Virus record (IMG/VR): IMGVR_UViG_3300027779_000011 | Coordinates: 94,717-158,716 of that record | Strand: one strand, 5' to 3' | Source of the DNA: a virus | Length of the DNA: 64,000 nucleotides | Part shown: piece by piece, positions 33,307 to 58,700 of the stretch | Layout: every line of letters begins with the position of its first letter | Position numbering within the stretch: the first letter of the stretch is position 1 | Translations under genes and position numbers: made by a program | Notes under the pieces: model-generated | Seen by the model: only the letters and a program-made list of their open reading frames with translations | Told to the model about the DNA's origin: nothing | Database searches by the model: none

Positions 33307-34431
33307 ATGTCTAGATTTTCAGATATCTTAAAGAATGGGTTTGAGTCAGAAAGCAGAAAGGGCAGAAGGCAGTCTAGGGTGGTATACCTAGACTATTGTA
33401 CCTTTAAAAAGATGGCCCAAGAAGAGCAGCACGGAATACTTCAACACTTCAGATCTGAAAATAGAGGCTATCCGACTAGGGACCAGTACCACACAATGAG
33501 AGGTGTTCCATCCTCTCCATCTCCCGGTCAAACTCCAAGTGATAACTCTGAGATAGCAAGGATGTATGGCGTTAACCCCAGGCAAGAAGACTCTGAAGTT
33601 ATAGAGATGAACAGGCCGAGGTCTCTATCTACAAGGTACTCTCCAGATAGAATTGGGGTTCAGGCACGAAGGGTTTCCGATGGTGTTTGGCAAGATCCAT
33701 ATACAAATAGAGTGTATGATTACAATGATGGGTTTAAAACAGAATCTGGAGAAGAGTTTCCTGGTGGCCATGTTGCGTTGCAGAGTCATATGATAGGGTT
33801 AGCAAGTCATCTTGATTCAGTCGGTCTTTATAAAGAGGCAGACTATCTTGATGCTATAGTAAAAAAAGCTGGCTCCTTTGGGGGTTTTGAATTCTCTTCC
33901 ACCAATAATGAAGAAGATACTTTAAGTCATGAGGAACTTCGCACTTTGCACAAACTATATGCGCAAAAAAATGGCATAGATTACAGTCTATATGACGATA
34001 TTCCGAAAGAAATTACTGATGCGTTTATAGGTCTGGATAAGCAAAGCCCACTCGTAAGGGAGCTTCTTGGGCTGGATAGCGGAGAGGCTATTGTGCATGA
34101 GCCTGCCGACGACCCACCAGCTAAAGGATTACTCGATTGGGACAAACCAGTGGGAACGTCTTACGCAGACCGAATGCTCGCAGGAAAACCAACTCGTTCT
34201 GAAGACCACCCTGAGGAGGGGGCGGATTACAACATAGCTGTTGCTTCCGCAATTCAAATACTTAAAAATATAAGTCGCTCGGCTTCAGCTCGGAGCAATG
34301 CTTATGGTTTCATGGAAATGGTGTTCGAAGAATTGGCCGGAAAAGAGGCAGTCGAGGCGCTAAGTGCAGCAAGATCGGCTATAGACCAGAAATCTGAAGA
34401 GGGTGGAAGCGGAAGGGGCTTTTTGGGGTAA
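33307..34431 (+). CDS. Hypothetical protein carrying the shared helical motif
   Basis: LASHLDSVGLYKEADYLDAIVKKA at 33799-33870. Confidence 0.7.
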   Translation: MSRFSDILKNGFESESRKGRRQSRVVYLDYCTFKKMAQEEQHGILQHFRSENRGYPTRDQYHTMRGVPSSPSPGQTPSDNSEIARMYGVNPRQEDSEVIEMNRPRSLSTRYSPDRIGVQARRVSDGVWQDPYTNRVYDYNDGFKTESGEEFPGGHVALQSHMIGLASHLDSVGLYKEADYLDAIVKKAGSFGGFEFSSTNNEEDTLSHEELRTLHKLYAQKNGIDYSLYDDIPKEITDAFIGLDKQSPLVRELLGLDSGEAIVHEPADDPPAKGLLDWDKPVGTSYADRMLAGKPTRSEDHPEEGADYNIAVASAIQILKNISRSASARSNAYGFMEMVFEELAGKEAVEALSAARSAIDQKSEEGGSGRGFLG

Positions 34432-34514
34432 TGAAAGCGAAGGGTCCATGGGGCTCAATTTTGTTTTTTTTATCAATGTATGCTGCAATATTTATAGCTC
34501 ACTGCCAATTATAA
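34431..34514 (+). CDS. Candidate 27-aa hydrophobic peptide (MKAKGPWGSILFFLSMYAAIFIAHCQL)
   Basis: TAATG overlap with the upstream stop; one hydrophobic stretch. Confidence 0.3.
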   Translation: MKAKGPWGSILFFLSMYAAIFIAHCQL

Positions 34515-34536
34515 ATTTTTAAAAATGTATAAAGCT

Positions 34537-34569
34537 CGCTACTATTAAGTAATATTATAGTAGCGTTTT
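34537..34569 (+). terminator. Inverted repeat with T-tail that contains a TACTATTAA promoter-like variant
   Basis: cgctactat-N11-atagtagcg-tttt. Confidence 0.45.
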
Positions 34570-34587
34570 GTTATTTTTGGAGAAAGT

Positions 34588-35530: not shown

Positions 35531-35544
35531 ATGGGGAATATGTT

Positions 35545-37002
35545 TTGAAAAAATTTAATAATAAAATAAATAATTTTTTTTTAAAGAATGCGTCATCACT
35601 TCATAATACGTCTGATTATTTTTTAGACCTGTATATAAATGAGGCGGAAAAGATGTCTAAATTTTCTGTAAATAATAAAAAAGATTACATAGTTGCATCA
35701 AATACCATAAAGTTTTTAGAATCTTTAAATATTGAAAAAAATAATAACTACATTGCAGATATTGTAAAAAAATCTAGAAGTGCTAATATTAAAAATAGTA
35801 ATGATTGTTATTACTTTATATTTAAATCTATATTGGAAGATGAAATGATAAATAAAAAATCATATCCGTCAGTTTTTGCTATACCAATTGATGGCATAGT
35901 GGAAGAGTATGATTTAAATAAGTGGGGAGAATTAGTTCATAAAGTTTATGATGCTGTAAATTCCGGAGATATGACATATGCAAACGCTATTGATTACTAT
36001 TCTGGATTTTTGGAATCCGACAACGAGTCTTTTAATTTTAAAAAATGGATTGAATATTACAAATCTGGAGAGCATCTAAAGTACAGCTTAGAAGAGGGAG
36101 ATATGAAGAAAAAAGCAAATATGCCAGTTGAGTTAATTTCTGGATTATACCACGACACTCCGACTATAGATCATGATCATATAGCTGAAAGCTCTGGTAT
36201 GTCCATGGTGTTAAAAGAAAATTATAAAAAATGGAAGGGTCAGTTCAATGCCGCTCTAAGAAGGATTGATAGGCTCTTAAGAGGTAGCGAGGATTACGTT
36301 GACCCAGAAACCTATGATTCTTTAGCTGACGACCTGCATACTTTGAGCAAACATGTGAATAGGGTTAGGATGTCAGTAACTGCATCAGACCTCGCGATAA
36401 GGACTGCTAATAAGTTCGAAAAAAGAGGGTTCTCCGAAGGTGCTAGCATATTGAGAAAGTTCGCACAGGAGGTTCCTCCAGACATGGAGATGACCCCGGG
36501 ACCGGCAGAGCAGGCTCCGGTAGCGCAGGAGCAGGCTCCGGGGGCTCCTGGGGAGTTGGCTGATGTGGTACCTGCTGAAACACCAGAGGAGCCTGAGCCT
36601 GAACCTATAGACATAAAAGATATCAAGCCAATACCCGGCCCATACGCGGGTGAGTACGCACAGCTTGCAGGAGATATAAACCTATCTGATGCGTCAGTAA
36701 AGCTGGAAGAGGTGGCCGGAATGCTTGCAGACAGAAGGGTTATAAGGTTGCTGGCAGAGTTTGATATAATGTTGGATAAGCTTGGTATAGCGTCTATGTT
36801 TCCAGAACTTGCAGAGTCTCAGGCAAAATTAATCGATTCGTATGGATACGCGTTAACAAGGGTTTCTAAAATGCTTGGTATGATTTCAAGTAGCAACAAA
36901 CTTGTAGAGATGTCAGATGATAGTGGCGCTCCGGAGCAACAAGAAGAGGGCGAGTCTACGGTCCAGCAGCCAGAAGTGCAGCCGGATCAGGAGCTGGTCT
37001 GA
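35545..37002 (+). CDS. Hypothetical head-block protein with shared helical motif and Pro/Glu linker
   Basis: TANKFEKRGFSEGASILRKFA at 36391-36465; possible internal starts at 35845 and 36103. Confidence 0.65.
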   Translation: MKKFNNKINNFFLKNASSLHNTSDYFLDLYINEAEKMSKFSVNNKKDYIVASNTIKFLESLNIEKNNNYIADIVKKSRSANIKNSNDCYYFIFKSILEDEMINKKSYPSVFAIPIDGIVEEYDLNKWGELVHKVYDAVNSGDMTYANAIDYYSGFLESDNESFNFKKWIEYYKSGEHLKYSLEEGDMKKKANMPVELISGLYHDTPTIDHDHIAESSGMSMVLKENYKKWKGQFNAALRRIDRLLRGSEDYVDPETYDSLADDLHTLSKHVNRVRMSVTASDLAIRTANKFEKRGFSEGASILRKFAQEVPPDMEMTPGPAEQAPVAQEQAPGAPGELADVVPAETPEEPEPEPIDIKDIKPIPGPYAGEYAQLAGDINLSDASVKLEEVAGMLADRRVIRLLAEFDIMLDKLGIASMFPELAESQAKLIDSYGYALTRVSKMLGMISSSNKLVEMSDDSGAPEQQEEGESTVQQPEVQPDQELV

Positions 37003-37025
37003 GATTTGCCCGGGAGGTTTAAACA

Positions 37026-37847
37026 ATGGACTCAGATCTAAAAAATATTTTTAGCGAATTATATGCGTTGTCAAAATATTATTTAACGGACACACCATAC
37101 CTTGTCGGGGGTGTTCCAAGGGACCAGATTATTAGTGGTACCGCAACTTTGGGAAAAGTTAATTCTATTGATCTAGATATTACAACAAATAGTTCAGATT
37201 CAATGAGGTTGGCGATATTATTTGCCTCAAGAAATAACTTTAGATTTAGAATTTTTGATGATAGGCACATAACAGTTTTTCTTAAAGATTTTAATATAGA
37301 CTTTTCAAGTAATTATATATCCAATAGGGCTGTCAACTTTTTAAAATCAGAACAGTGCGATGATTACCTGTGTCCTGCATTTCCAGAAATAAAGGATAAG
37401 GTTACTGAGGTTTATAGTAGAGATTTTACTATAAATGCATTGCATCAAAATATCAAAACCGGAGAGATTGTTGATATATTAGGAAGGTCTTTTGACGACA
37501 TAAGTGATAGGGTGATAAAAACTATTCTGCCACCTGAGATAACAATATATGATGATCCAAGGAGGGTGTTCCGAGCTATAAGGTTTTCGACTAAGTTTGG
37601 CTTTGATATTGATAATAATATAAAAGATTATGTTAAAAATAATAAAAATATATTTACCAGCCCATCTGTAAAAGATGGTTATATATCATCACAAATATCA
37701 ACATCCATGGAGCATAATTCTGAAAAAACAATAGAGATTTTAAGAGATATGGACATACTTGGAATCATCCCAATGACAGGCTTGTTTAAAGAGTATATAA
37801 TAGACAATAAGCTGGTTATAGAATATCTTGATAGCTCAAGCGCATAG
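37026..37847 (+). CDS. cca: tRNA nucleotidyltransferase (CCA-adding)/poly(A) polymerase family
   Basis: YLVGGVPRD, DLDITT, RDFTINAL, DDPRRVFRAIRF. Confidence 0.88.
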   Translation: MDSDLKNIFSELYALSKYYLTDTPYLVGGVPRDQIISGTATLGKVNSIDLDITTNSSDSMRLAILFASRNNFRFRIFDDRHITVFLKDFNIDFSSNYISNRAVNFLKSEQCDDYLCPAFPEIKDKVTEVYSRDFTINALHQNIKTGEIVDILGRSFDDISDRVIKTILPPEITIYDDPRRVFRAIRFSTKFGFDIDNNIKDYVKNNKNIFTSPSVKDGYISSQISTSMEHNSEKTIEILRDMDILGIIPMTGLFKEYIIDNKLVIEYLDSSSA

Positions 37848-39344: not shown

Positions 39345-40100
39345 ATGAATATTTTAAAAGAATTAGTAACCTTGGCAACCCATCTGGATAAGAGGGGCTT
39401 TGTAAAGGAGGCAGATTATTTAGACAAAATTGTAAAAAAATCTCAACAAGCACAGCAGGTTCAGCATGCGTTACCATCCTATGTGAATGACGACTGGATA
39501 AGAACTAGAGTTGCATCCCCGAAGGGGGTGGAGGCCTCAAAAGCCTTGGAGGCCTATAATCAGGCCTATACGCAAAATGGTCAAGCTATACTGCGATCAA
39601 TTAATTCGATTGATGTGAAAGGCGAGCAAGGCCTTCCTAGAGAAGAGAGGCGGAGAATCCGGGCAGAAGGAACTCCGGAGGAGCGAGAAACTCTTCGTGC
39701 GAACCACTATGAAAGGATTCAGAACGCACTTTCTATGTTAGGCGGAAAGGCCTTTGAAGAGATAAAGCAAACGCTTGGAATGGACCCAAGAGAGGCAGAT
39801 ATGGGGCAGGCTCTGCCTACAGCAGCACATCTCTTTGTGAAGTGGGCCCCAATCGTAATGTTCGGAGCAGCCCCTGGCTCTCTCTCCATGGCCGAAGGTT
39901 TATCTTTAGATACCCCAGGTGATATCACCAAGGCAATGAGCGGACTATCAAGGCTAATAGAGGAGGGCTCTAAGATCGCAGGAAGTAATCTTCCTGACGA
40001 TGCTAAGGCTGCGGCTCAATTAACCGTAGATAAGGCGGGTGCCGCATTATCAGCTATAGGCTCATGGGTTTCGGATCCATCACTTGCTCCTAGGGTTTAG
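39345..40100 (+). CDS. Hypothetical protein with N-terminal shared helical motif
   Basis: LVTLATHLDKRGFVKEADYLDKIVKKS at the N-terminus; SD AGGAG. Confidence 0.75.
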   Translation: MNILKELVTLATHLDKRGFVKEADYLDKIVKKSQQAQQVQHALPSYVNDDWIRTRVASPKGVEASKALEAYNQAYTQNGQAILRSINSIDVKGEQGLPREERRRIRAEGTPEERETLRANHYERIQNALSMLGGKAFEEIKQTLGMDPREADMGQALPTAAHLFVKWAPIVMFGAAPGSLSMAEGLSLDTPGDITKAMSGLSRLIEEGSKIAGSNLPDDAKAAAQLTVDKAGAALSAIGSWVSDPSLAPRV

Positions 40101-40758: not shown

Positions 40759-42531
40759 ATGAAATCTTCTCAAAAAGAAAGGCAAATATTTGAATCATTA
40801 AAGTTAGATTTTCTAAACTTTGATCCGCCTAATTTTGTTCAAAACAACCTAACGTTAGATGGTTCCACATTTCAAATAAAAGGAAATGGATGGAGCTTTA
40901 TGTCTGATATATATAGATATATCGCCCTGCAAGCTACAAAGAGAAATGGAAAGCCTGTGGTAATAAAGAAGGGTCGACAGGTTGGCGCAACAGTCATGGC
41001 TGGAGCTCTAGATCTTTATTTTACTAACAGCGGGATGTTTAGGTCCCCAGGGCCAAGGGTGTTGCATTTATTTCCAGCCCTAGCTCAGGTCAAAAAGTTT
41101 TCTCAAGACAAACTTGAGGGTCTGATCAGAACTGCAAAAAATGACTCAATAAATAAAAACAAGCTAAAAACCCCAAATGCTGTAGACAACCTAACAATGA
41201 AACAGTTTAATGACGGAACGCTATGGATAGACAGCCTGGGAACTGATGGAGACAGGATAAGAGGTATGTCTGTGGATATAGCCTTCTTTGATGAGGTTCA
41301 GGATATGATGGGGCATGCTATTGGAAATGCAACAAAAACATTAACTGCAGCAAAGTATGGGCCAATTGGACAAGGCGTTCAGGTTTATTTTGGAACGCCA
41401 AAGGAAAGGGGTAGTTATTTTTCCAAACTTTGGGAAATTTCAGATCAGAGGTATTATCATCTGGGTTGTAAAAACTGCAAAGAAACTTATCCATTTTACC
41501 TACCAGATGATAACAGGTGGATGGATATATGGGTAGAGGGCTACACGATAAAGTGTCCACTCTGTGGTCATGAGCAGCACAAGGTTGACTCAATAGAGCT
41601 TGGGAAGTGGGTTCCCTCCAAACCATCAGAGAGCGCAAAAATGACCGGATTTCATGTAAATCAGTTATATATTCCATATTTTTCTAAAGAAAATATATTA
41701 AACTTAATGCCAGAAAACAACCCTTCTCAAACAGAGAGGATATGGCAAAATGAAGTTGTCGGAGAGTTTTATTCTGGTTATGATGTTCCTATAACAAAGG
41801 AAGAGATATACAATAAGTGTAGGGATGCGGATAGGTTCTTTTCTAAGAGGATAAACCCAAGGGATAAGGTTACATATCTTGGTGTCGACTGGGGAGGGAA
41901 GACAGATAGCAAAACAGATTTGGGCGGACAGTCTTTTTCTTGCGCTGTAATATTGTCAGTGGGAAATGATGGGGAGCTGCTTATTGAGCACGCGCACAAA
42001 TTAACTAAAAAAGACTTTAGCTATAAGAAAGAAACTATGCGTGAACTGTATAGAAGGTTTGGAGTCAGCAGGGGAGTATCTGACTGGTTCTTTGGTCAGG
42101 ACGTTGTTCATGATTTGCAACTTGAGTTCGGAGAAAGATTTTTGGGAGCCCAAGGAAGTGGAAGTCTGATAAAGCCAATTAAATATAGAGAGGATGAGCA
42201 AATTATATCGTATAATAAAGACCTAATGGTAGAGGAGATTTTCGATATGATGAAAAAAGGGAAGATAAGGTTTCCATGGAAGAGCTATGAATATATAGAG
42301 TGGCTTATAGATCACTGTGTATCTATGGATGCTAAAATAAGGATATCGGGTGGCCAGCCAATCAAGACCTATACAAAAGGGTCTGTCCCAAATGATGGAT
42401 TGATGGCGCTTATGTACGCATATATGGCTTATAAATTTGACTTAACAAAAGGCTTTTCAATAAGGCCAGGCATGAATACACAGTCTCAATACCCGATAGG
42501 TACTTTGGCTCATGCGCCAAAGATTAGATAA
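40759..42531 (+). CDS. terL: Terminase large subunit (lambda GpA-like ATPase plus nuclease)
   Basis: VIKKGRQVGAT Walker A, FFDEVQD Walker B, GTP motif III, CxxC...CxxC, LGVDWG nuclease motif; adjacent to portal. Confidence 0.9.
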   Translation: MKSSQKERQIFESLKLDFLNFDPPNFVQNNLTLDGSTFQIKGNGWSFMSDIYRYIALQATKRNGKPVVIKKGRQVGATVMAGALDLYFTNSGMFRSPGPRVLHLFPALAQVKKFSQDKLEGLIRTAKNDSINKNKLKTPNAVDNLTMKQFNDGTLWIDSLGTDGDRIRGMSVDIAFFDEVQDMMGHAIGNATKTLTAAKYGPIGQGVQVYFGTPKERGSYFSKLWEISDQRYYHLGCKNCKETYPFYLPDDNRWMDIWVEGYTIKCPLCGHEQHKVDSIELGKWVPSKPSESAKMTGFHVNQLYIPYFSKENILNLMPENNPSQTERIWQNEVVGEFYSGYDVPITKEEIYNKCRDADRFFSKRINPRDKVTYLGVDWGGKTDSKTDLGGQSFSCAVILSVGNDGELLIEHAHKLTKKDFSYKKETMRELYRRFGVSRGVSDWFFGQDVVHDLQLEFGERFLGAQGSGSLIKPIKYREDEQIISYNKDLMVEEIFDMMKKGKIRFPWKSYEYIEWLIDHCVSMDAKIRISGGQPIKTYTKGSVPNDGLMALMYAYMAYKFDLTKGFSIRPGMNTQSQYPIGTLAHAPKIR

Positions 42532-45723: not shown

Positions 45724-46281
45724 ATGAAAAAAAAATCTTATAGTTCTAAAGAACAAGTTATCAGTATTAAACCGATATCAAATACGCCGGTGCCATCATC
45801 GCCAGAGGGTCTCACCGAGGAGGGCGCAGGTTCTGCAACTGACAGTGCCGGAAGATCCGGATTTGGGATGACTTTTCAGCAAAGCGCTGTAGATATAGAC
45901 GGAGTCCTTCCATATGATGTAACTGGAGTATATGATGATTTTAAAATAAAGCCACCGGTTGATAACCTAGACGCACTAGTAGAGCTCCTGCTTAGCCTGG
46001 GAGACACAATGGACAAGGAAAATAGAAGTCTTGCAGACTTTTCAGATTTTTTACTAACAAAGTACGCAGAACAGCGTGATGCAGATGTAACCAGAATGTT
46101 TAATGACGTTATAATTAAAATTAAAGATTCGGATTCTTTTAATAAAGATGACATTATAATTAAAATTACAAAAAGATATAGCAGATATATAAAGAATTAT
46201 TTTAATAAATTTAATGATTTGTATAAATCAAAACAATTTGCTTATAACAAAATACTAAATGAAATAGGTAGTGATTTTTAA
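45724..46281 (+). CDS. Hypothetical protein with degenerate shared helical motif
   Basis: LLSLGDTMDKENRSLADFSDFLLTKYA at 45985-46068; starts MKKKSY. Confidence 0.65.
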   Translation: MKKKSYSSKEQVISIKPISNTPVPSSPEGLTEEGAGSATDSAGRSGFGMTFQQSAVDIDGVLPYDVTGVYDDFKIKPPVDNLDALVELLLSLGDTMDKENRSLADFSDFLLTKYAEQRDADVTRMFNDVIIKIKDSDSFNKDDIIIKITKRYSRYIKNYFNKFNDLYKSKQFAYNKILNEIGSDF

Positions 46282-46582: not shown

Positions 46583-47683
46583 ATGGATAGAATAAATAGA
46601 ATTGTTTTAATAAAAGATATGTATTGTGAGATAAAAAAAGAATCCAGCGCAAGTATGTATGATTTTTACGAACCAAGAAGTGGTGGCGCTAATCACAAGC
46701 AATATGCTTTTAGATATCATGAAGGTAGAGATGAGTTTGAAGTTATGGAAACCCCGGGGTGTGAAAACATCGGAAGTCTTTATCAAAGTGGTTCTAATGT
46801 ATACAATTCTTTAATGCTAGTTAGAGAGCACTGGTATAAATTTCCCTTTAGTGGCGGCTCTTGTACTCCAAGCTCTCAGGCGTACCCCATATCTGGAGAA
46901 CAGGTAGATGTTGTGCCTAATTCTAAGGGCACGCCTGTTCCACAGGATGCGTCTCATCTGAGCCCAGATGAGCTTCTTCAACTCTCGCCAGATGAGATGC
47001 TTGGGTCTGCAAAGCCGACGAGCCGCGTGCAAGAGCTGTTCCCATCTGGAGCGATTAGAAATAGGCTGCAGAATATAAGACATTCTGATTCAGATTTTGC
47101 AAGCGTTGAGACCGTTAGGCCGTCTGGAGGCCAGCTTGCTGAGTTTTCGGGGGGGAACTGGAGATATCATCAGCCAAACCTTGGAGAGATGAAGTGGTTT
47201 ATAGAAAATGGAGTCACAGACTTTATAAGGCTCAGTGGAGATGGCTCTGGAGATATTATAAAGGATCCTCAAGTGGGCGTCAATATAACGATAGCTGTTC
47301 AAAAAAGGTTTGTAGAAGGGCTTGGGGCCAAGCTTCACAGGCCTAGCGCTCATAGCGGCTATAGGTTTGGTCAAGGATACACTGGGTCTATAAAGCGCTG
47401 CAACCCCATATTATCTGGTGGGAACTGCCTTGTTCATTGTCGGTGGGGAGCGGATAGAACTGGATATATTGTGGCTGCATTTTTAAAAGAATCTGGAGCT
47501 ATGACAGATTTGGAAGAATTATGGAACTATACGATTGGTTTTAACAGATGGGAGAGTAAGGTCTGCAGAAATGCATCAAATCTTGGATATTCTAAATATT
47601 TAGATGGCTTTTACCCATTAGATCAGTTTTGTAAGCGACATAGTGATTGCGATGTTTGTGATAAGCTAGAACAATTAAGATAA
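46583..47683 (+). CDS. Cys-based (CX5R) protein tyrosine/dual-specificity phosphatase family protein
   Basis: CLVHCRWGADRTG P-loop. Confidence 0.8.
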   Translation: MDRINRIVLIKDMYCEIKKESSASMYDFYEPRSGGANHKQYAFRYHEGRDEFEVMETPGCENIGSLYQSGSNVYNSLMLVREHWYKFPFSGGSCTPSSQAYPISGEQVDVVPNSKGTPVPQDASHLSPDELLQLSPDEMLGSAKPTSRVQELFPSGAIRNRLQNIRHSDSDFASVETVRPSGGQLAEFSGGNWRYHQPNLGEMKWFIENGVTDFIRLSGDGSGDIIKDPQVGVNITIAVQKRFVEGLGAKLHRPSAHSGYRFGQGYTGSIKRCNPILSGGNCLVHCRWGADRTGYIVAAFLKESGAMTDLEELWNYTIGFNRWESKVCRNASNLGYSKYLDGFYPLDQFCKRHSDCDVCDKLEQLR

Positions 47684-47734: not shown

Positions 47735-50173
47735 ATGAAAAAAATATCTTGGCCATACTTCGAGACAGAAGAGGAGCAAAAAGCAAACTTAGGCTCTATG
47801 TCGGAGCCTGATGATTCTGATATGAGCATTGATATGTATTCTAATGTTTATGATACGATGGTTCCAGATAAGTCGGTAATGGAGGAGGGGCAGGAACCCT
47901 CCTATGGGTATGGCGAAGGAATGTTCAGTCCGGTTGCAGATAAGGACTATGATGACGTATATTTAATATCTAATGCGTCAAGATCCTACAAGATGCTAGA
48001 CAGGCTCAAAGAGGGGGCGTCTATTTTAGACATAGAGTCATCACACAATGACTCAGAACTTTTATCCAAATCGGGATTTAATGTTGTATCCATATGTCAA
48101 GACAAAAAAAGGATTGCTCAAAGTACGGATTATGAATTAATAAAAGACGATGCTAGATATTATAATTTTTCTAGAAAGTTTGATGCTTTCAGATGCCTAA
48201 AGATACTTAAGAGTGATATGGATTATGAAATTCTTATTAAAAATATATATAATCACTTGAGGCCGAGATCTTTTGGAGTTATAAGAACCTCTAACTTAGA
48301 TTTAAAAATTTTAAAATTATTGAAAAATAATAATTTTAAAATAAATAAAATATCAAAATTTAAGAATGCGGGTTCGATATTTTCCGACATCTTTGTTGAG
48401 AAAAATGATTTAGATAAATTCGCAAATATAGAAATTTATTCAATAAATGACAAGAACTTATGCCCAGTCACCGGAGGCTCAGTTGAAGATAACTATATAT
48501 CCGCTATGTTCTTTGGAAGCGATTTTAACTTCAGCTCTGCAGAGTCGTTGAAAGAGTTTGAAAAAGATCCATTTAAATACATAGAACCTATTGCGAAATT
48601 TTCATGTGATGTAGCCAAGACGTTTTATGAAAAAGTTGCTGGATTGCAGGTATATCCATCTCTAAACTCCGAGGCCGGGCTTGTATTCGAGTATGAAGAA
48701 CCACAGGATGTTTTGTATCATATGGGCACTGTTCCATACTCGATTGATATAATCTTTATAGATAGCTCAATGAGGATTAAAAAAATATCTAGAAGTATAG
48801 AGCCCGGAAGTCTTGCTACTTTTGGATGCCATAATGTAAAATACGTATTGGAAATATCCGGGGGCCTTTCTAACAGGCTTGGCATAAAAGAGGGCAGCCT
48901 GATAAACATACAAAAAGATGAATCAAATATTATAAATTCAATAAGCAAATTCTCCAATCTGTATAATATTGGGAACAAGAACGTTATATTTAATTCAAAA
49001 AATAAATCTTTTAAATATGGCGATTATAACATAATTACTTTCGATAAGTTCTCCACACCATTGAAGAAGATTGGTGCCGAGAAAAGAACTTCTGATGTGC
49101 ATAACTCTGTAAAAAATCTTCACAGGAAAAACCCAAGGGTAGATGTTTTTGATATAGACAGAGAGTTATTTTCAGACAATTCATTTGTTAGATTGTACAG
49201 GGCGAGGGCTGCTACGAAAGATGATAAGGCTGTACATAGGGGCTTCGATAATAAAGCGTTTTATATAGAAAAGAATGAAGATGGAGATAACATATACATA
49301 GATATTAAACTTTCAAATATCATAGACAACGAAGCTTTGAAAAAAATATCATCTAATTACTGCATACTGTCTAGCCCAGAAAAAAGCTTCAAGGGGTTTG
49401 CAAATATTGATAAGAAGATGCTAAGTAATATAATAAGCTTATCTTCGAAGGAAGGCTCCAAATCAGTGTTTGTCACTAGGGCTTCCGGAAATACAGATAT
49501 ACTTAGAGATATTATATGTAATAAAATCAAAATGCATAGCTCTGCAAATATTTTAAAAAATTGCGATATAATGCAAATTCCAAATAATTTTAGTAGTGAG
49601 GATATTATAAAGTCCGCCTCAAAGAAGTACTTGACTAAGAACATACATTTAAACAATTATAATATTAAAAACGCAGGATTCCCAATTGCAAAAGAAGTGA
49701 GGGGTAAGGCGGCAGATGCTGAGAAAATGCTTGAAAGTGCACAGAAAACATGCCAGAAGCTTAGAGAGTCATTTCAAAAAAATCTCAGCGAGTATGAAAA
49801 AATACAGGCAAAGCCAGATGCAGTTAAGGCTTCGAAGGGAGAGTACAGACTTTCTTCGAAAAGACTTATTAAAAAAGTGAGATCCATGCTTTTAAATATA
49901 AGAGATTCAATACGAGTGTTGAATGATATAAAAGATGTGTCTACAACTGGAGAGATAATAGATGCGCTGATAAGTTCATGCTCTCCGGCATCAGAGTCTG
50001 CTCAGGAAATCTTTAACCTTGTTGATAAAATTGAAAGCCCTGAGTTTTTCGCGGCACTTCAAGAAAATTCTTCAAACTTCGATCAGTCTGCAGAGGATTT
50101 GAGCTCATCCATGGGCCGGGCCAGAGACTATATAAATAACAACATACTAGGTATAGTGTTAATATCTGAATAA
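47735..50173 (+). CDS. Multidomain protein: degenerate SAM-methyltransferase-like fold, YHS domain, DUF192 and helical C-terminus
   Basis: ILDIESS...DARYYNFSRKFDAF...HLRPRSF (MTase-like, lacks GxGxG); CPVTG...FNFSSAESLKEFEKDPFKY (YHS); GLQ...GLVF...MGTVPYSIDIIFID...YVLEISGG (DUF192). Confidence 0.7.
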   Translation: MKKISWPYFETEEEQKANLGSMSEPDDSDMSIDMYSNVYDTMVPDKSVMEEGQEPSYGYGEGMFSPVADKDYDDVYLISNASRSYKMLDRLKEGASILDIESSHNDSELLSKSGFNVVSICQDKKRIAQSTDYELIKDDARYYNFSRKFDAFRCLKILKSDMDYEILIKNIYNHLRPRSFGVIRTSNLDLKILKLLKNNNFKINKISKFKNAGSIFSDIFVEKNDLDKFANIEIYSINDKNLCPVTGGSVEDNYISAMFFGSDFNFSSAESLKEFEKDPFKYIEPIAKFSCDVAKTFYEKVAGLQVYPSLNSEAGLVFEYEEPQDVLYHMGTVPYSIDIIFIDSSMRIKKISRSIEPGSLATFGCHNVKYVLEISGGLSNRLGIKEGSLINIQKDESNIINSISKFSNLYNIGNKNVIFNSKNKSFKYGDYNIITFDKFSTPLKKIGAEKRTSDVHNSVKNLHRKNPRVDVFDIDRELFSDNSFVRLYRARAATKDDKAVHRGFDNKAFYIEKNEDGDNIYIDIKLSNIIDNEALKKISSNYCILSSPEKSFKGFANIDKKMLSNIISLSSKEGSKSVFVTRASGNTDILRDIICNKIKMHSSANILKNCDIMQIPNNFSSEDIIKSASKKYLTKNIHLNNYNIKNAGFPIAKEVRGKAADAEKMLESAQKTCQKLRESFQKNLSEYEKIQAKPDAVKASKGEYRLSSKRLIKKVRSMLLNIRDSIRVLNDIKDVSTTGEIIDALISSCSPASESAQEIFNLVDKIESPEFFAALQENSSNFDQSAEDLSSSMGRARDYINNNILGIVLISE

Positions 50174-50242: not shown

Positions 50243-53200
50243 ATGTTAAAAAAAATATCATTTTCTCCGAATACTAGCTTAGAGACCGTAGAGCTTAGCG
50301 AGATAAAGGCTAGCCCACACCTCTTAGATAGAATGGATAAACTAGCTAGCAACATAAGAGAAATTGCACCACAGTCTGATGACTTTCTATATTTTAGTAT
50401 TATATTTTTAAAATCAGCAGAGGCGTGCCTTATTAATGAAAGCGGAGACCTTAAGAAGGTATCTGGTGGCGAAACGGCATGGGGATACTTTGATGATGAC
50501 TGGAAGTGGCATGGAAACGTTCAGCCGCACAGAAATAACAATAGAGACATATTCCCGGAGTCCGAACTAAGAAAGGCTGCGAAAGACTGGATTGGAATGC
50601 CATTATGCAGAGACCACGAATCTAGTTCTGTAGATGGAATAAGGGGAATAATATTAGACACTCATTACGATGAAAAGCTAAAGCAGGTCGTTGGGCTCTG
50701 CGCCCTCGATAGAATAAATTATCCAGATTTAGCAAGAAAGGTTCAGACAGGCCTGGTTAGGTATGGCTCAATGGGCACTGCAGTCGAAACATCCGTGTGC
50801 TCTGAGTGTGGAAATAAGGCGCAAACGCAGGAACAGTACTGTGAACATATAAACAATAAGAACGCCTGGGGCGAAATAAACGTTGGGCTAAAGCCAATAG
50901 AGTACAGCCTTGTTGTTCAGCCTGCAGAGCCGGGAGCTGTGCTATTACGGTGTATAGCCTCTCTAAAAGAGTATAAGAGTGAGTTCACCCAGCATGGCGT
51001 CAAAGACTTAAATTATATGTTAAGCTCTTTGAGCGAGCAGCAGGCAGAACATCTTGATAGGATAATGAAGACGGCATGCGGAAAAGACGGATGCTCTATA
51101 GTTGAGCGTAAGAAGATAGTTAGAGGGTTTCTGCTGAATAATGATTTAGTTAAAGATGCAGAAAGAAAAGTTATTTCGCTTGAAGAAGCGGAAAGAGCTG
51201 CTAATATAGTTAGCAGAATTTCTGGAGGGAAGTCATTAGAAGAAATAAGTAATGATACAGACTCTCCAGAGTACTCCTTCCTTAGTAGACTCGAAGTGTC
51301 TATTTTGGGAGGTGGTGGTCGCACCGAGGTTACTGGAGACCAGAGGGCTCTTACCGGAGAGTCTATATTACCCGACGAAGGCTCTCAGATGGATGGTATG
51401 AGTCCAAGAGATCTGACTGGATCTTCGGGTCCTATGGTTGCATCGACTGATGGTGAGTCAAGAGTTGATACTTTCGATACAGGAGGTGTTATCGAAAGAA
51501 ACGTGTATTCAAAACAAAACAAGAATGAACTTGAGAAAAAAGCAATTAATTCCATATTGGAGGATATTATGAATGAGGCAAGATTGAGAAAGAGGGCGGA
51601 GCTCCGCCGTCGAATCGCATACCATCAGGGTGGGTCCGAGGGCGTAGAACCAAGCACTTACAAGGATGAGAAGGCACTAGAGGGTAGGCTGAGGGGCGAA
51701 GATCGCCAGATGAAGCAAGATAAGGGAATGGGCGGTGACTCAGGCATGATGCCCGGTGACGAACAAGTTAAGCAGAAGCTTAGCAGGGCTCAGATAGAAG
51801 AGCGCAGGCTTAAAAGAATGGCGTACCATCAGGGTGGCTCTGATGGTGTTGAGCCGAGCACTTATACTGACGAGAAGGCCCTAGAGGGAAGACTCAGGGG
51901 CGAAGATCGTCATATGAGGCAAGATAAAAGTATGGGTGGAGACTCCGGCATGTTTCCTGGTGATGAGCAGGCCAAGGCGAAGCTCAGCAGGGCGAAATAT
52001 GAAGGGCCGTCTCTACGGACAAAATTTTCTGCAAAGACAAGAAGTGGAAGGCTAGATAGAGCTGGTTCGGTATTTGAGGTTTTTGCAGGTAGTAATAAAG
52101 TCATTACGGCAACTGCTAAAGAAATCTTTGGAACCGAATTATCTGAAAATTGGAACTGGCTATCTAGCAAGGAGTATGGACAAGAAGTTTGTAAGCAGAT
52201 TAGAGCACACGGTTTAGACTATGTGTCGGGACTCCTTAAGGTTGCGCAAGAAGAACTTCCGCCGCCTCCAGCCGGAGGAGATATGCCTCCACTTCCAGGT
52301 GAGGGGGGAGGAGACATGGATCTTCCGCCCATGGATATGGCAGAACCCGCAGAAGAGCTTCCTCTTGCTATGGAAGATGATGCAGAAGGTGAGTCAGAAG
52401 ACCCGAAGGACGCGATCGAGAGCGCCTTGGTTGATATAGAAGAGCGGGTTGATGAAGTTAGAGACTTAGCATCCCAGCTTGGTGGGGGTCAGGACGTTGA
52501 CATAGATATCGCAGTATCCCCAGAGGGTGCAGACATCGGAGATGATGGTCTTGGCGAGCTGCCAGTTCCTTCTTTGGCGTCTGAATTAGTCCAGAACCTA
52601 AAGACGGCAATGTCTGAGTTAAATGAATCTGCAGATGAGCTAGCCTTAATTGCGGAAACATTCGAAGGAGAGAAGCAGCTTACTGCCTCACAGCGTACAG
52701 ATCTTAGAAAAATTGCATTTGATGCACTTAATGATTCCTATGATCTAAATGCCGAAACAAAGGCTCTAGTTAGGGTTACGGCAGGATTGGTAAAGAGTGC
52801 TAACTGGGGTGCTGAAAATACAAGCAGCATGGACGATGGTCCTGCTAATTCTGTTAATTATGCGGAAGACAAAGAAGACAAAATGGATGACAACTATGTA
52901 ATGGAGCACGATCTAGATGAGGGTGACCTGAATAATCCCAGCATGGAAGCAGAGGCTGATGATGCCGAAGACGGGGCGAGTAATGACCTAATGGTAGAAG
53001 CCATGGTCTTAAGAAAAGAGAGAAGGGAAGCTATTCTTAAGCATGCTGAGAAGTCTGAGTTGAAAGATAGAAAGAGCAAAAGAGAGTCTCTTTTTAAGAA
53101 TGCACAAATGCAGGAGCAGGGTGTTGAGGAGTTGGTCTCTGAGGTCGCCAATGATATGCAGAGTCCAGACGAATTGCTTGGGGCAGCTGCTGACGGAGAT

Positions 53201-53605
53201 GACGATAACGATATCAGTGATGCTGACGATGACACTAGCGCAACAGTTGCCCTTGCAGGCTCCTTAAAAGGAAAACTGCAAGATGCTCTTAGCGATAAGC
53301 ATGCGGAGGAAGAACGAGAGACTTATAAGCTCAGGTTAAGAAGAGCTTATGACGTTGCAATGAATATGCAAAGAAAGGGTCTCCTCTCAGAAACAAAGCC
53401 ATCCTTGGATAGGCAGGTTGATGAGATAATGCAGTTTGACTCAAATGCTTTTGAGGCATTCAAGAGAACGATTGCTAACACAAGGCCTCTCTCCTCGGTT
53501 AAGACAGCTTCTGATCTTGGAGGTGTTAATATAGGGGTTGAATCTCCAGAGTCTTCGACAACGGTGAGAAATACGGTAGATGTGCTAACATCAATGTGGA
53601 AGTAG
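50243..53605 (+). CDS. Prohead maturation protease fused to scaffold-like region
   Basis: NNNRDIFPESEL, PLCRDH (candidate catalytic His), SMGTAV-x3-CSECGN...CEH, EYSLVVQPAE (candidate catalytic Ser), then acidic/coiled-coil C-terminal half; upstream of the capsid genes. Confidence 0.75.
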   Translation: MLKKISFSPNTSLETVELSEIKASPHLLDRMDKLASNIREIAPQSDDFLYFSIIFLKSAEACLINESGDLKKVSGGETAWGYFDDDWKWHGNVQPHRNNNRDIFPESELRKAAKDWIGMPLCRDHESSSVDGIRGIILDTHYDEKLKQVVGLCALDRINYPDLARKVQTGLVRYGSMGTAVETSVCSECGNKAQTQEQYCEHINNKNAWGEINVGLKPIEYSLVVQPAEPGAVLLRCIASLKEYKSEFTQHGVKDLNYMLSSLSEQQAEHLDRIMKTACGKDGCSIVERKKIVRGFLLNNDLVKDAERKVISLEEAERAANIVSRISGGKSLEEISNDTDSPEYSFLSRLEVSILGGGGRTEVTGDQRALTGESILPDEGSQMDGMSPRDLTGSSGPMVASTDGESRVDTFDTGGVIERNVYSKQNKNELEKKAINSILEDIMNEARLRKRAELRRRIAYHQGGSEGVEPSTYKDEKALEGRLRGEDRQMKQDKGMGGDSGMMPGDEQVKQKLSRAQIEERRLKRMAYHQGGSDGVEPSTYTDEKALEGRLRGEDRHMRQDKSMGGDSGMFPGDEQAKAKLSRAKYEGPSLRTKFSAKTRSGRLDRAGSVFEVFAGSNKVITATAKEIFGTELSENWNWLSSKEYGQEVCKQIRAHGLDYVSGLLKVAQEELPPPPAGGDMPPLPGEGGGDMDLPPMDMAEPAEELPLAMEDDAEGESEDPKDAIESALVDIEERVDEVRDLASQLGGGQDVDIDIAVSPEGADIGDDGLGELPVPSLASELVQNLKTAMSELNESADELALIAETFEGEKQLTASQRTDLRKIAFDALNDSYDLNAETKALVRVTAGLVKSANWGAENTSSMDDGPANSVNYAEDKEDKMDDNYVMEHDLDEGDLNNPSMEAEADDAEDGASNDLMVEAMVLRKERREAILKHAEKSELKDRKSKRESLFKNAQMQEQGVEELVSEVANDMQSPDELLGAAADGDDDNDISDADDDTSATVALAGSLKGKLQDALSDKHAEEERETYKLRLRRAYDVAMNMQRKGLLSETKPSLDRQVDEIMQFDSNAFEAFKRTIANTRPLSSVKTASDLGGVNIGVESPESSTTVRNTVDVLTSMWK
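51617..51994 (+). repeat. Tandem duplication with a 204-nt (68-aa) period inside the protease-scaffold gene
   Basis: AYHQGGS[ED]GVEPSTY[KT]DEKALEGRLRGEDR...GGDSGM-x-PGDEQ-x-K-x-KLSRA starting at 51617 and 51821. Confidence 0.95.
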
Positions 53606-53613
53606 GTGATATT

Positions 53614-54162
53614 ATGATTGGAAATAAATATACAGGAGATAATATTGCTGCTGAATTTATGAAGATTATAAGCTCAAAGTCTTCTCCAGGGAAAACCCTG
53701 GAGAAGGCTGCTTCTGTCGAAAACGATCTAGTTGAAGCGGCAGAGGGGATGCTTATGGAATCTAAAGATGAAAGTCCAGCGAATAACCCGATTGAAAATG
53801 CTTTGGAGGCTGTTGAAAATATGCTCGGAGACGAAGGAGCCCCCTCCGCTGATGCAGATAGCTTGAGTAGTGTCGATCAGGACGGGCTAGATGCCCATGC
53901 TGCATTTAACGCTTCTGAAGCTTACCTTATAAAGGGACTCGGCAAGATAGCTGGAGGGCTGAGGAGAAAGGACGAATCATTTGCGGCGGATATGGTAGAG
54001 GCAACGGCAAGAAGTATTTATGGAGACATAATGAAAGAGGCTGCTCATCGTAACAATATAATGAGCGGCCTTTCCAAGGTTGCTCGCGAGTTGTCAAGCT
54101 CCGGAGATAATTTTGCTTCAGACTTAGTTAAAGCCTCCATGAGGAGAATTAAAAGGGGATAA
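53614..54162 (+). CDS. Hypothetical head protein with two copies of the shared helical motif
   Basis: LGKIAGGLRRKDESFAADMVEAT and LSKVARELSSSGDNFASDLVKAS; SD AGGTGA before ATG 53614. Confidence 0.7.
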   Translation: MIGNKYTGDNIAAEFMKIISSKSSPGKTLEKAASVENDLVEAAEGMLMESKDESPANNPIENALEAVENMLGDEGAPSADADSLSSVDQDGLDAHAAFNASEAYLIKGLGKIAGGLRRKDESFAADMVEATARSIYGDIMKEAAHRNNIMSGLSKVARELSSSGDNFASDLVKASMRRIKRG

Positions 54163-54184
54163 TTTAAATATATTTGGTAGAATA

Positions 54185-54963: not shown

Positions 54964-54975
54964 TATGGCAATAAC

Positions 54976-54982
54976 TACTAAT
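54976..54982 (+). promoter_or_regulatory. TACTAAT candidate late promoter
   Basis: Intergenic, about 47 nt before ATG 55029. Confidence 0.55.
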
Positions 54983-55028
54983 TAAATAAGTTTGTTGAGT
55001 TCTAAAATATCTTTAGGAGTGGATTAAA

Positions 55029-55418
55029 ATGTCAAATCGTTGGGTAAAAGAAGACAGGGTCGCTTGGACCAGAAGCGAGGTTATGCAAGAGCTTGAAAAG
55101 AAGGTTCTGGATAATATGCGTCGTGTCGAAGCTATGGCTCAAAAAATAGCACAAGATAACACTCAGGCAAAAGTAGACGCTGTAATGAGCTCAAGCGCAC
55201 CTCTACATGAAAGAACAGAGGCAATAAAGAATTTAGCTGATGATGAGCCTAAAGATTCTGATGTCGTAGATGATAATGAAGTCGATGACGAAGTTACAAA
55301 GGAAGCCATGGTTGCGGAGCTGAGGCTGATGGCCCAGGCCGCTATATCTAAGGGAAATATAAAGGTAGCTTATAAAATTGAAAGAACAATTGAAGAAATT
55401 TTAGAAGAAGAAGTCTAG
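55029..55418 (+). CDS. Small head-block protein with C-terminal shared helical motif
   Basis: LRLMAQAAISKGNIKVAYKIERTIEEI; AQKIA site. Confidence 0.7.
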   Translation: MSNRWVKEDRVAWTRSEVMQELEKKVLDNMRRVEAMAQKIAQDNTQAKVDAVMSSSAPLHERTEAIKNLADDEPKDSDVVDDNEVDDEVTKEAMVAELRLMAQAAISKGNIKVAYKIERTIEEILEEEV

Positions 55419-55430
55419 AGGTTTGTTTTA

Positions 55431-58400
55431 ATGAAGGTCAACACGAGCAGGTCGTCTGAAATATTTGACGAGTTTATAAAAAATTACTCTACATATAAAA
55501 GCGGTGTTGATACCGGAACAAAGTCTAGAATATCAAAGATAGCGGGTAGTTCGAGAATTATAAAAATCGCATCGTTAAGAGCCGGAGTGCAGCTTGCTTC
55601 TGGAGTGGCCGACGCTGGCGGGACGATTGCTATTGCAGGAAAGGTTATAGGTAATCTTGCAGATGTCGTAAAGCACGTAGATGTCCTTCCAATCGGCGTT
55701 TGGGCCAAAGCGGTTGGGGCGGCTGACAATCTTCCCTCTATTATGTCAAGGCTTAGGGCCGGGGCTGTAATAGATGCCTCGTCTGAGGGTGCTGGTGAAT
55801 TGGCCAAGCTTTCATCAATGGTATCAAAATTTGATCAAGTTGCCACTAACGCTATAAAGAATAGTGATGAAATGATTAACTTTAGAAAAACTTCATCGGC
55901 AGCATTTCCCGGTGGAAAAAACACATGGGTAGGTGACTTAGAAACTGCAATTACAAGAGTGTACATTCAGGGAACGATAGATGCGGTTGGAACTGGAAAA
56001 TCCGCTTCAAAGATAATGGAAGATAGCATTACAGAGGTAATAAGAAATGGTGGTGCAAATTTTAGGTACGAACTTCCAGGTAGCATAGCAGGGTGGAAAA
56101 ATATTGCCTCCAGGCAACCAGAGTTTATAGACGCAGTAGAAGGAATGGTTAAGGGAACGGCCAGGGTTGAGCCAGATGAGCTTGCGGGAATGTATAGGCG
56201 TGCTGGAAGTGCTCGAAAAGGCGGCGAAGGTGGCGCAGACCTCAGGCAAGGTGGAGCAAGGGAGCTCACCAGGGGTGAGGGTGGAATAGAAACTGGTGTA
56301 GCGAGGTATACTGACGAAGCAGGAGATGCGGGAGCTGGTGCCGCCAAAGGTACGGATGATGTGGATATACGAGATCCTGGTGTGCCGTCCCGAGTAGATA
56401 ATCCTCAGCAGATAGACCAATTGGGTGCAACTACTGCGAAAAATGCAGAAGATATCGCCGCAATAAGTCGATTCAACGAGACGATGCGGGGCCAGGTTGG
56501 CCAAAGCATGAACCTTGAACAAGTAATGGCGCTATTCCAGGATATGAGCAGGACTCAGCAGGAAACGGTACGCGAAATGGCGCGGTCCATGGGAAGTCAG
56601 AGCGTAACTGTAAAGCAGATTAACCAACAAAGCGTTGATGGGGCAGTGACAGGAGCGGGAAGAAAAGCTTCTGCCCGGGCCAGAGAGACTTCCCGTAAGG
56701 CTTCTGATGGGATACCGAGAAGAAAGCAGAGGCTCAGACAGGCTCAGGCAGGCGGAAATCAAGCTGATATTACAAGACTTCAGGATGAGATAAGGCGTCT
56801 TGAAGAGATAACAAGAAGGTCGAACGCCGGAACGCAGGCGGTCAAAGAGACTGCAGGCTGGAAAGCATTAATTCCTGGATCGGCAGCTACCGCATGGAAG
56901 TGGGGTAAAAGAATTTTAGTTGGCGGTGTTCTCATCGGGGCAGGATATCTTTTATACCAGTGGCTGACCGGACCAGATGGGGATGAGGCATTTCTAAGAG
57001 TTAAGAATGCGACAATTCAGCCACAACTGATAGAAGATCCGGCGGGCAGGCTAGTCCCCGTTGTTGAGGCGGCAATTACAGCGCTTAGGGCTGTGGAGTT
57101 CACTCCTGCCAGCGTTTCAGATGCAAGGACTGGCGCCTATATAGAGTTTTTACAAAATACACTTTTGCCAGCCGTATCTTCAGTTGCTCAGGATGGTAGA
57201 AACTTTGCTCTCCCAGAGGGAAATGAGAACGGCCTTATAATAACAGGTCAGGCAACTTCAAACACTGAAGCTCAACATCTTGCGATGCAGCCGGCAGGTT
57301 CTTTCGAGCCGGATGTTGTCTCTGGGGATGAGGCTGATTTTATTGCCGCAGAAGATGCAGTTGAGAATCTTAAAAATGAGTTGCAAAGATTCAGCGAATC
57401 TGTGTCGAAAACTCTTACTGACGGAATGCAGGCTCAGGCAGGAGATAATGCAAACCTGGGAAACCGCGACTGGAATCCTCGTGGAGGTGGTGGCCAAGTT
57501 GGAAGTGGTGGCGCTAGCGGCGTCGGCGGAGCACCCGGCCAGAGAGGTCAGCAGGGTGGTGGCTCGGGACTGGAAGGCCGAAGAGATCCGGGTGGTCGTG
57601 GTGATTTAAGAAGAAATGAAATTGCTTTAGAAATGGATCTATGGGGAGAAACGTGGAGAGTTGTTCTTCCCGCAAGATCTAGAAGAATTGGCGGACAAAG
57701 AGTTAGTACTCTTAGATCTGATATAGCGGAAAAGCTTGGCGATCCGCCACCAGATGGCACAAGGCCTGGTCCAATATATAGGGCTTTGAATACCGCCATT
57801 GGAAAAGAATATGTTGGGCTTGGTGAAAATAATGATCCACAAATTGGCGGCGGCCATAGTGATTGGTCAAATATAATGCAGTCAGACCAGGTCAGGCTGA
57901 ATGATGCTACTGGAGCTAGAATATCATTAGCGATACAAAGAATGGCCAGATACAATATAGATTCTGTAAAAGAGCTAAGAAAAGATTTACTAGAAGACAG
58001 CAAAGACCGCCTTGGCGAGGGGCTTTTCAATACTTCTCCAGCCTATAGGGATGAGAAGAGGTCTCTTAGGGCTCCAACTAGAGAGAGCCGAAGGCAGGAG
58101 CGGAAAGACAGAAAGAGGCGCAGAAGGGAGTCAAGAAGAAGGGCCGGCCTTGATATAGGCGGTCTTCATAAGGTCTCAAGTAAAAAATCCTTATATGAAT
58201 CTACTAATATAGATGATTTAATCGAAACAAGGATTCAATATAATATGAGTTTCAATAAAAAAGCAGACAAATATTCTAATGAATATTTTAGAGATGCCGT
58301 TAAGGGTCTTAATGACAGTTCTGTAAAGACTTATTATGCAGGGTTTAAAGACATGTATAATGAGAGGCCTGAGAAAAGGCCAAAGGATACAAATTCCTTA

Positions 58401-58700
58401 TATATGATTGGTGATGAAACTGGTTCAGAGTTAGTTCAAAGGGCCCACCCGAAGTCCATTGTTGTCTCAGACGCAATGGGAAATGGTGGCCTGGTAGAAA
58501 ATCTCTTGGAGCAACACCGTCACGGAGAAGAGGTGGCTTTCAGCACTCCAACCGGGAATTATAGATCAAAGCATGCCTATGTTTTAGAAGAGCTCAAGGG
58601 CTTGGCTAAGATGGCAAGATCAGAGAATAATGCGGAAGCGTTTGAAATGATCAAAGGTGCTATGGTTGAAATCGTGTCTTTAAACCCAAAGTTAGTTTAA
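55431..58700 (+). CDS. Large Ala/Gly-rich protein with one predicted TM segment; candidate ejection/internal protein
   Basis: KRILVGGVLIGAGYLLYQWL hydrophobic segment; Arg-rich patch; C-terminal shared motif LKGLAKMARSENNAEAFEMIKGAM. Confidence 0.6.
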   Translation: MKVNTSRSSEIFDEFIKNYSTYKSGVDTGTKSRISKIAGSSRIIKIASLRAGVQLASGVADAGGTIAIAGKVIGNLADVVKHVDVLPIGVWAKAVGAADNLPSIMSRLRAGAVIDASSEGAGELAKLSSMVSKFDQVATNAIKNSDEMINFRKTSSAAFPGGKNTWVGDLETAITRVYIQGTIDAVGTGKSASKIMEDSITEVIRNGGANFRYELPGSIAGWKNIASRQPEFIDAVEGMVKGTARVEPDELAGMYRRAGSARKGGEGGADLRQGGARELTRGEGGIETGVARYTDEAGDAGAGAAKGTDDVDIRDPGVPSRVDNPQQIDQLGATTAKNAEDIAAISRFNETMRGQVGQSMNLEQVMALFQDMSRTQQETVREMARSMGSQSVTVKQINQQSVDGAVTGAGRKASARARETSRKASDGIPRRKQRLRQAQAGGNQADITRLQDEIRRLEEITRRSNAGTQAVKETAGWKALIPGSAATAWKWGKRILVGGVLIGAGYLLYQWLTGPDGDEAFLRVKNATIQPQLIEDPAGRLVPVVEAAITALRAVEFTPASVSDARTGAYIEFLQNTLLPAVSSVAQDGRNFALPEGNENGLIITGQATSNTEAQHLAMQPAGSFEPDVVSGDEADFIAAEDAVENLKNELQRFSESVSKTLTDGMQAQAGDNANLGNRDWNPRGGGGQVGSGGASGVGGAPGQRGQQGGGSGLEGRRDPGGRGDLRRNEIALEMDLWGETWRVVLPARSRRIGGQRVSTLRSDIAEKLGDPPPDGTRPGPIYRALNTAIGKEYVGLGENNDPQIGGGHSDWSNIMQSDQVRLNDATGARISLAIQRMARYNIDSVKELRKDLLEDSKDRLGEGLFNTSPAYRDEKRSLRAPTRESRRQERKDRKRRRRESRRRAGLDIGGLHKVSSKKSLYESTNIDDLIETRIQYNMSFNKKADKYSNEYFRDAVKGLNDSSVKTYYAGFKDMYNERPEKRPKDTNSLYMIGDETGSELVQRAHPKSIVVSDAMGNGGLVENLLEQHRHGEEVAFSTPTGNYRSKHAYVLEELKGLAKMARSENNAEAFEMIKGAMVEIVSLNPKLV

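Follow-up and report, generated by a model that had tools for sequence, protein, structure and literature searches.

The diverse internal proteins of the head of T-even phages are described as having only a capsid targeting sequence (CTS) in common, through which they are loaded into the scaffolding core (PMC3012670, PMC7411985). The CTS of the T4 proteins IPI-III and Alt is given in PMC7411985, citing Mullaney and Black 1996, as an N-terminal propeptide of 10-20 residues that is removed by gp21. Giant phage SPN3US has many internal head proteins, and its head and ejection proteins carry protein-specific N-terminal propeptides of 111-130 residues that are cleaved at A-x-E, such terminal propeptides being proposed to direct proteins into the prohead (PMC7411985). 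Here we describe a conserved peptide of ~30-35 residues, called the tag below, which is carried by five proteins encoded in the final 64 kb (positions 94,717 to 158,716; the window, 64,000 nucleotides) of the 158,716-bp virus record IMGVR_UViG_3300027779_000011, and which we consider a candidate module for docking proteins in the phage head.

The tag resembles the CTS in that one conserved peptide is common to otherwise diverse, variable and unrelated proteins of one large phage, in that its carriers are partly encoded outside the head gene cluster, and in the loading into the prohead core that we propose for it. It differs from the CTS in being a folded hairpin (as predicted) with no sequence similarity to the T4 peptide, and it is not a short propeptide restricted to the N-terminus: a protein may have up to three copies of it, in any position, and it is also fixed in conserved head-block proteins. 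Unlike the tag, the SPN3US propeptides are not a shared portable module. Scaffolding proteins of the P22 gp8 type possess a C-terminal helix-turn-helix domain that binds coat protein, known in one scaffolding protein. The tag is likewise a small helix-turn-helix and forms the C-terminus of an acidic 188-amino-acid (aa) protein whose gene adjoins the protease gene, the place that a coat-binding domain would take in a scaffold, but it is portable and present on thousands of proteins. Only this 188-aa carrier looks scaffold-like, being small and acidic, with a helix-turn-helix C-terminus and a gene between those for the protease and the capsid; no Pfam or PHROG scaffold match was found in the window carriers, and fold searches returned only generic hairpins. 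The short, unstructured cargo-loading peptides that direct proteins to the HK97-fold shell of encapsulins, and the dockerins, calcium-binding repeats of the cellulosome scaffold system, are conceptual analogues as short portable modules on unrelated proteins, with no homology to the tag.

A conserved peptide shared by unrelated proteins

An initial annotation of the window had reported a near-identical segment in two otherwise unrelated open reading frames (ORFs), together with six degenerate copies. All eight peptide strings are present, six of them where they had been placed and two (36403 and 45997) 12 nt downstream of the position given. The strong copies correspond to aa 165-188 of a 374-aa protein and aa 10-33 of a 251-aa protein; the second of these peptides lies at 39372-39443, the range 39345-39443 reported for it beginning at the start of the ORF. 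BLASTP aligned ORF 33307-34431 with ORF 39345-40100 at 17 identical residues out of 27 (E 4e-8) and found no other significant similarity between them outside the tag, so that the claim held for the two strong copies. A hidden Markov model (HMM) seeded with these two copies and iterated over the 863 six-frame ORFs of the whole genome converged on seven canonical copies at E<0.01, two in the window and five upstream of it, at genome positions 19.5, 19.8, 30.8, 75.3 and 76.0 kb:

33772..33879, + strand: canonical tag, internal (aa 156-191), in the 374-aa protein (ORF 33307-34431), HMM E 1e-14 to 1e-20
39348..39449, + strand: canonical tag, N-terminal (aa 2-35), in the 251-aa protein (ORF 39345-40100), HMM E 1e-17 to 1e-22
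genome ORF 19492-19764: canonical tag, N-terminal, in a 90-aa protein (iterated HMM)
genome ORF 19754-20575: canonical tag, N-terminal, in a 273-aa protein (iterated HMM)
genome ORF 30621-31022: canonical tag, N-terminal if an internal Met is the start (iterated HMM)
genome ORF 74863-75546: canonical tag in the C-terminal part of a 227-aa protein (iterated HMM)
genome ORF 75569-77863: canonical tag, internal, in a 764-aa protein (iterated HMM)

The five upstream copies contradict the earlier statement that all copies lie between the start of the late block and the major capsid protein (MCP) gene, an impression that arose because a single window had been viewed. In the 374-aa protein, a conserved small beta-rich core (aa ~105-155) directly precedes the tag; the C-terminal helices of this protein (aa ~342-365, window 34330-34400) align beneath the second tag of its orthologues and may be what is left of a second tag after decay and truncation. 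The gene of the 251-aa protein is located two genes upstream of the large terminase gene, and no relatives of this protein were found in IMG/VR by a peptide-pattern search.

To see how widely the tag is distributed, we made the seven genome copies into a 37-column profile and searched 1.84 billion cluster representatives with it; 2,489 proteins matched at E<=1e-3, and 238 did so at E<=1e-10. Among the best 150 carriers, with a median length of ~170 aa, 93 hold one copy, 47 two and 10 three (57 thus hold two or three tags, often one at each end), and the copies are N-terminal in 119 cases, internal in 74 and C-terminal in 24; most single-copy tags begin at residue 2-5. Gain and loss are also visible among orthologues: among 27 orthologues of the 374-aa protein, no fewer than 9 stop just before the tag, the others carrying one to three tags at or after that point, and in relatives the slot upstream of the terminase gene is occupied by differing, unrelated small proteins, each with the tag at its start. 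Ten tag clusters that were looked up came from metagenome collections only, one with a Tara Oceans sample name. Ten of the 14 IMG/VR contigs with the exact DNA pattern of the tag carry the portal or MCP gene of this clade; the other four are 7-67% complete fragments lacking head genes and so provide no test of clade restriction. A clade of uncultured marine phages, widespread and ~130-335 kb in size, bears the tag.

The canonical tag reads roughly h-h-x-L-A-x-H-L-D-x-x-G-h-x-K-E-A-D-Y-L-D-x-I-I-K-K. In 84 N-terminal examples, which are the top HMM matches and therefore somewhat inflate the conservation, the elements L-D-x-x-G, K-E-A-D-Y-L-D and I-I-K-K are almost invariant; past I-I-K-K-[A/S] conservation drops sharply and a variable acid-rich linker follows. 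AlphaFold2 (AF2) was run with family alignments of the 374-aa and 188-aa proteins. The model of the former shows a helix at 156-172, a two-residue turn and a helix at 175-191, with a predicted local distance difference test (pLDDT) of 82-93. For the latter protein, with an isoelectric point (pI) of 4.8, the model is poor over the acidic N-terminal half (pLDDT mostly <50) and confident over a C-terminal domain made up of three helices (106-124, 128-168 and 172-187; pLDDT 93-97); the first of the two tags of this protein comprises helix 106-124, a turn and the start of helix 128-168, and the second has pLDDT 94-97. According to these models, the tag is an autonomous two-helix helix-turn-helix hairpin. 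The BLASTP alignment, the 2,489 clusters and the predicted hairpins together bear out the annotation's portable helix-turn-helix module on unrelated proteins.

We then looked for a known domain that would account for the tag. No Pfam family at E<=0.01 covered it in the window carriers, nothing in PHROGs matched it, and a profile search against PDB sequences gave a best E of 0.23, which is not significant. Fold searches with both AF2 models (PDB Foldseek, VIA-align wide and BFVD) returned generic helical hairpins (Z ~4) or nothing significant. A likeness to SAP/HeH/Rho_N, EF-hand or dockerin domains had been considered and was dropped as unsupported by Pfam: among 129 carriers scanned there were no SAP, HeH or Rho_N matches and only sporadic ones to EF-hand (two carriers) and Dockerin_1 (one carrier, region not located). 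The pI of the tag (~6.8) and its conserved acidic residues argue against DNA binding. A full-text literature search with tag strings retrieved no relevant paper.

The ending of the tag bears on the proposal, made in the initial annotation, that the prohead protease cuts it off at K-x-[A/S] once loading is done, as it would a T4-like capsid targeting leader. Four of the reported copies do end in K-x-[A/S], the second helix of canonical tags usually ends in K-K-[A/S], which closes about two-thirds of the 84 N-terminal examples, with the variable linker next to it, and the start of most single-copy tags at residue 2-5 would suit a leader, for which T4 supplies the precedent (PMC7411985). However, the ending is absent from the divergent tags of ORF 53596-54162 and ORF 55431-58700 described below, the 84 examples are biased towards conservation as noted, and K-x-[A/S] carries little information because composition alone predicts it about once per 100 residues. 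Tags in internal and C-terminal positions, and proteins with two or three tags, are common and fit a cleaved leader poorly. The tag is not a simple N-terminal leader; removal at K-x-[A/S] finds no support beyond the motif that ends helix 2, and we regard this reading as very unlikely.

Divergent copies on proteins of the head block

Nearly all genes of the window are on the + strand, and four of them mark the head block:

40759-42531: large terminase
42541-44229, + strand: portal protein, with 250 relatives in IMG/VR at 51-75% identity
50228-53605, + strand: protease-fusion protein, head maturation protease domain at aa ~103-213 (phrog_18299, E 1.7e-13)
59598-60644, + strand: MCP (phrog_2522, E 2.6e-71)

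The MCP is 47.5% identical to gp27 of Bacillus phage G and 75-84% identical among 18 aligned relatives. No close GenBank phage was found at the DNA level, and the relatives are in IMG/VR (250 portal and 395 MCP matches, on contigs of up to 335 kb). We used 80 portal loci, fetched with the portal protein, and 80 MCP loci to examine the six degenerate copies. An HMM made from the copies of this genome alone scored none of the six and, taken by itself, would have wrongly dismissed four real ones. In the 80+80 loci, the canonical HMM matched orthologues of a 185-aa, a 188-aa and a 1089-aa protein precisely at the sites where weak copies had been reported. The orthologue family profile of each protein was further compared by hhalign with a tag profile of 271 sequences, 13 untagged families from the same loci serving as controls (best P 0.0031-0.59):

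45976..46077, + strand: divergent tag, internal (aa 85-118), in the 185-aa protein (ORF 45724-46281); hhalign aa 89-116, Prob 96.5, P 9e-10
53920..54018, + strand: divergent tag 1 of 2 (aa 109-141) in the acidic 188-aa protein (ORF 53596-54162), internal duplicate of tag 2; hhalign aa 112-134, Prob 1.9, P 0.025
54052..54153, + strand: divergent tag 2 of 2 (aa 153-186), C-terminus of the 188-aa protein; hhalign aa 156-185, Prob 80, P 1.5e-5
58575..58679, + strand: divergent tag, C-terminus (aa 1049-1083) of the 1089-aa protein (ORF 55431-58700); hhalign Prob 84, P 8e-6
36397..36471, + strand: possible decayed tag, unproven (aa 285-309), in a 485-aa protein (ORF 35545-37002); hhalign aa 286-312, Prob 9, P 0.0036
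55311..55403, + strand: possible decayed tag, unproven (aa 95-125), in a 129-aa protein (ORF 55029-55418); hhalign aa 95-114, Prob 1.1, P 0.047

Given the range of the controls, the 185-aa protein, the 1089-aa protein and aa 156-185 of the 188-aa protein stand out, and the other three rows do not. The gene of the 185-aa protein is located downstream of the portal gene, and an HMM of the p185 type recovers all seven canonical tags of the genome as its next matches. The 1089-aa protein is encoded upstream of a 263-aa ORF and the MCP gene, and the C-termini of its orthologues, like those of the 188-aa protein, score with the canonical HMM. The first tag of the 188-aa protein is weak in the direct profile test, but the two copies in this protein find each other in reciprocal HMM searches (E 7.5e-8 and 1.8e-7), and the orthologue consensus holds the pattern L..K.A..L..KG...A.D in register. 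A relative in which the canonical HMM matches no more than three times still keeps both tags of this family. For the 485-aa protein, P is about that of the best untagged control family, and for the 129-aa protein an HMM of the p1089 type gave E 0.015, the level of a spurious match in the same search. Four of the six degenerate copies are thus real by orthologue profiles and two are at background. Five window proteins securely carry the tag; the 485-aa and 129-aa proteins are possible carriers, indistinguishable from chance. With orthologues scoring by the canonical HMM and profile tests above the 13 controls, the claim that proteins of the head block carry the tag stood.

Three side observations concern these carriers. 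The 188-aa protein probably starts at ATG 53614 rather than at GTG 53596, because its orthologues start there and the protein atlas sequence runs from residue 7; no usable match for the protein was found in that atlas. One of its orthologues (L107:3535-4572) has 346 aa, with an insertion and two additional near-canonical tags, and by eye the repeats of the insertion resemble peptidoglycan-binding repeats. The 1089-aa protein contains an 18-residue hydrophobic stretch (aa 495-512, 56913-56966) resembling a membrane helix, as well as long Gly/Arg-rich low-complexity regions, and these features would fit an ejected, channel-forming head protein.

Proposed docking in the head and its rivals

The exposed polar residues of the tag are near-invariant and their surroundings variable, which most likely reflects docking to one common partner. 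These invariant residues, the independence of position and the gain and loss among orthologues suggest an autonomous docking module, and the diverged copies fixed in head-block proteins (the 188-aa, 1089-aa, 185-aa and 374-aa proteins) point to the prohead interior as the most likely place of the partner. Taken together, we see about an even chance that the tag docks its carriers to a common partner inside the prohead. The partner could be the scaffold or core, the inner capsid surface, or related hairpins on core proteins; variable tagged proteins would thereby be brought into the head, from which they would probably pass to the host. Two candidates for the partner are encoded in the window. 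The protease-fusion protein, in which a long acidic region is fused to the protease domain, is a candidate scaffold and contains no tag itself (profile-profile control, P 0.078). The MCP is the other candidate; a complex prediction of MCP with a canonical tag (aa 1-45 of the 251-aa protein), run without controls, gave a score of 0.00, which speaks neither for nor against such an interaction.

The proteins attached to the tag were examined by scanning 129 carriers with Pfam and PHROGs. Most are unannotated. Three match endolysin PHROGs, one a transglycosylase and two have LysM domains; wall-acting domains are typical of virion-borne proteins, and such cargo fits delivery by the virion. One carrier matches Phage_T7_Capsid (E 1e-4, region not located). 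Directly downstream of two tag carriers, this genome encodes a protein whose OmpA-like match is weak and whose own N-terminal tag is sub-significant (E ~1). No replication or transcription domain was found among the 129 carriers.

Several observations weigh against docking in the head. The initial annotation had expected HMM matches to concentrate in ORFs of the virion proteome, and this was not borne out by the canonical copies: about 8 of 40 across four genomes fall in the head module, close to the ~14% expected from its length, so that they are not concentrated there. Five long relatives hold 15, 8, 10, 3 and 3 canonical tags, and most copies in relatives lie at a great distance from the head module, in islands of small genes; in one stretch of 14 kb, 8 of the 26 ORFs are tagged. 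The divergent copies were sought only in the head-block proteins that had already been flagged, which introduces an ascertainment bias into the link with the head. Part of the orthologues of the 374-aa protein have no tag. The non-tag parts of the carriers are mostly acidic (median pI ~5), unlike the internal proteins of T4, which are described as basic. Finally, no cultured relative with the tag was found (tblastn of two carriers against 50,697 GenBank phage records gave nothing at E<=1).

Islands of small variable genes often hold host-takeover genes, and the location of most canonical tags in such islands would agree with a different role, in which the tag takes small accessory proteins to a host machine or to a replication or transcription factory of the phage and the head-block copies likewise serve localisation. 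A tag that works at any position would also suit a general binding domain of this kind. However, the diverged tags are constant on proteins with genes between those for the portal, the protease and the capsid, the 129 carriers include none with a replication or transcription domain, the wall-acting domains of the cargo are better explained by virion delivery, and the T4 genes for internal proteins are likewise located outside the head cluster. We therefore hold such a hub outside the capsid to be unlikely.

Returning to docking in the head, one specific mechanism would need no separate reader protein. The hairpins may bind each other as four-helix bundles, multi-tag and core proteins cross-linking into a network (a scaffold core, an inner body or a condensate) that takes up cargo when a cargo tag pairs with a core tag. 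This mechanism is attractive in view of the 57 of the 150 best carriers with two or three tags, often at both ends, of the two tags in tandem in the 188-aa core protein, and of the homology between core-protein and cargo tags. Among generic hairpins the tag also superposes on the C-terminal hairpin of UvrB (Z 4.4, root-mean-square deviation 1.3 A over 38 residues), which is known to pair, although this is a resemblance only. Yet AF2 models the two units of the 188-aa protein with one long helix in common and not folded back on each other, and the invariant polar surface residues could equally suit a heterologous partner. Pairing of this kind, as the particular form of docking in the head, seems to us rather unlikely.

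Other genes of the head module and implications

Within the long acidic region of the protease-fusion protein, a 68-residue unit occurs twice in tandem (aa 464-531 and 532-599; window 51617-52024), each unit opening with A-Y-H-Q-G-G-S. ORF 46583-47683, a 366-aa protein of the head module, has an H-C-x5-R phosphatase signature at 47435-47464 and weak Pfam matches to dual-specificity/tyrosine phosphatases (DSPc E 3.9e-5, under the curated cut-off), and may thus be an enzyme that is packaged. Between the genes of the portal and the protease, positions 47735-50173 encode an 812-aa protein in which aa 290-391 clearly match DUF192 (E 3.6e-19); the N-terminal part of this protein is weakly methyltransferase-like. 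Between tagged genes, the 273-aa ORF 37026-37847 looks by eye like a nucleotidyltransferase of the CCA-adding/poly(A) polymerase type (G-G-x-x-R-D ... D-x-D) and has tblastn matches in 49 of the 80 portal loci. The word ACTAAT, noticed 5' of several tagged and head genes, was dropped as a common promoter, its frequency being similar on both strands and inside genes.

More broadly, and only tentatively, at clearly less than even confidence, we propose that this alpha-hairpin of ~30 residues may be the general protein-packaging code of a cosmopolitan clade of marine giant phages. Proteins of the prohead core would carry diverged hairpins, and dozens of swappable accessory proteins per genome, among them cell-wall enzymes and likely anti-defence effectors, would carry the canonical hairpin and be docked into the head for delivery to the host; the code would work at any position and in several copies, and would be reusable for foreign cargo. 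If loading into the head is true, sequence alone would suffice to identify the whole complement of proteins that an abundant group of uncultured ocean phages packages and injects, with thousands of candidate effectors, and the tag would be a second, structurally different answer to the problem that T4 solves with a short targeting leader. Being folded and independent of position, it could then become a handle for encapsidating foreign proteins. Even with a partner outside the capsid, a 30-residue module present on ~2,500 protein clusters and lacking a database entry merits definition as a family.

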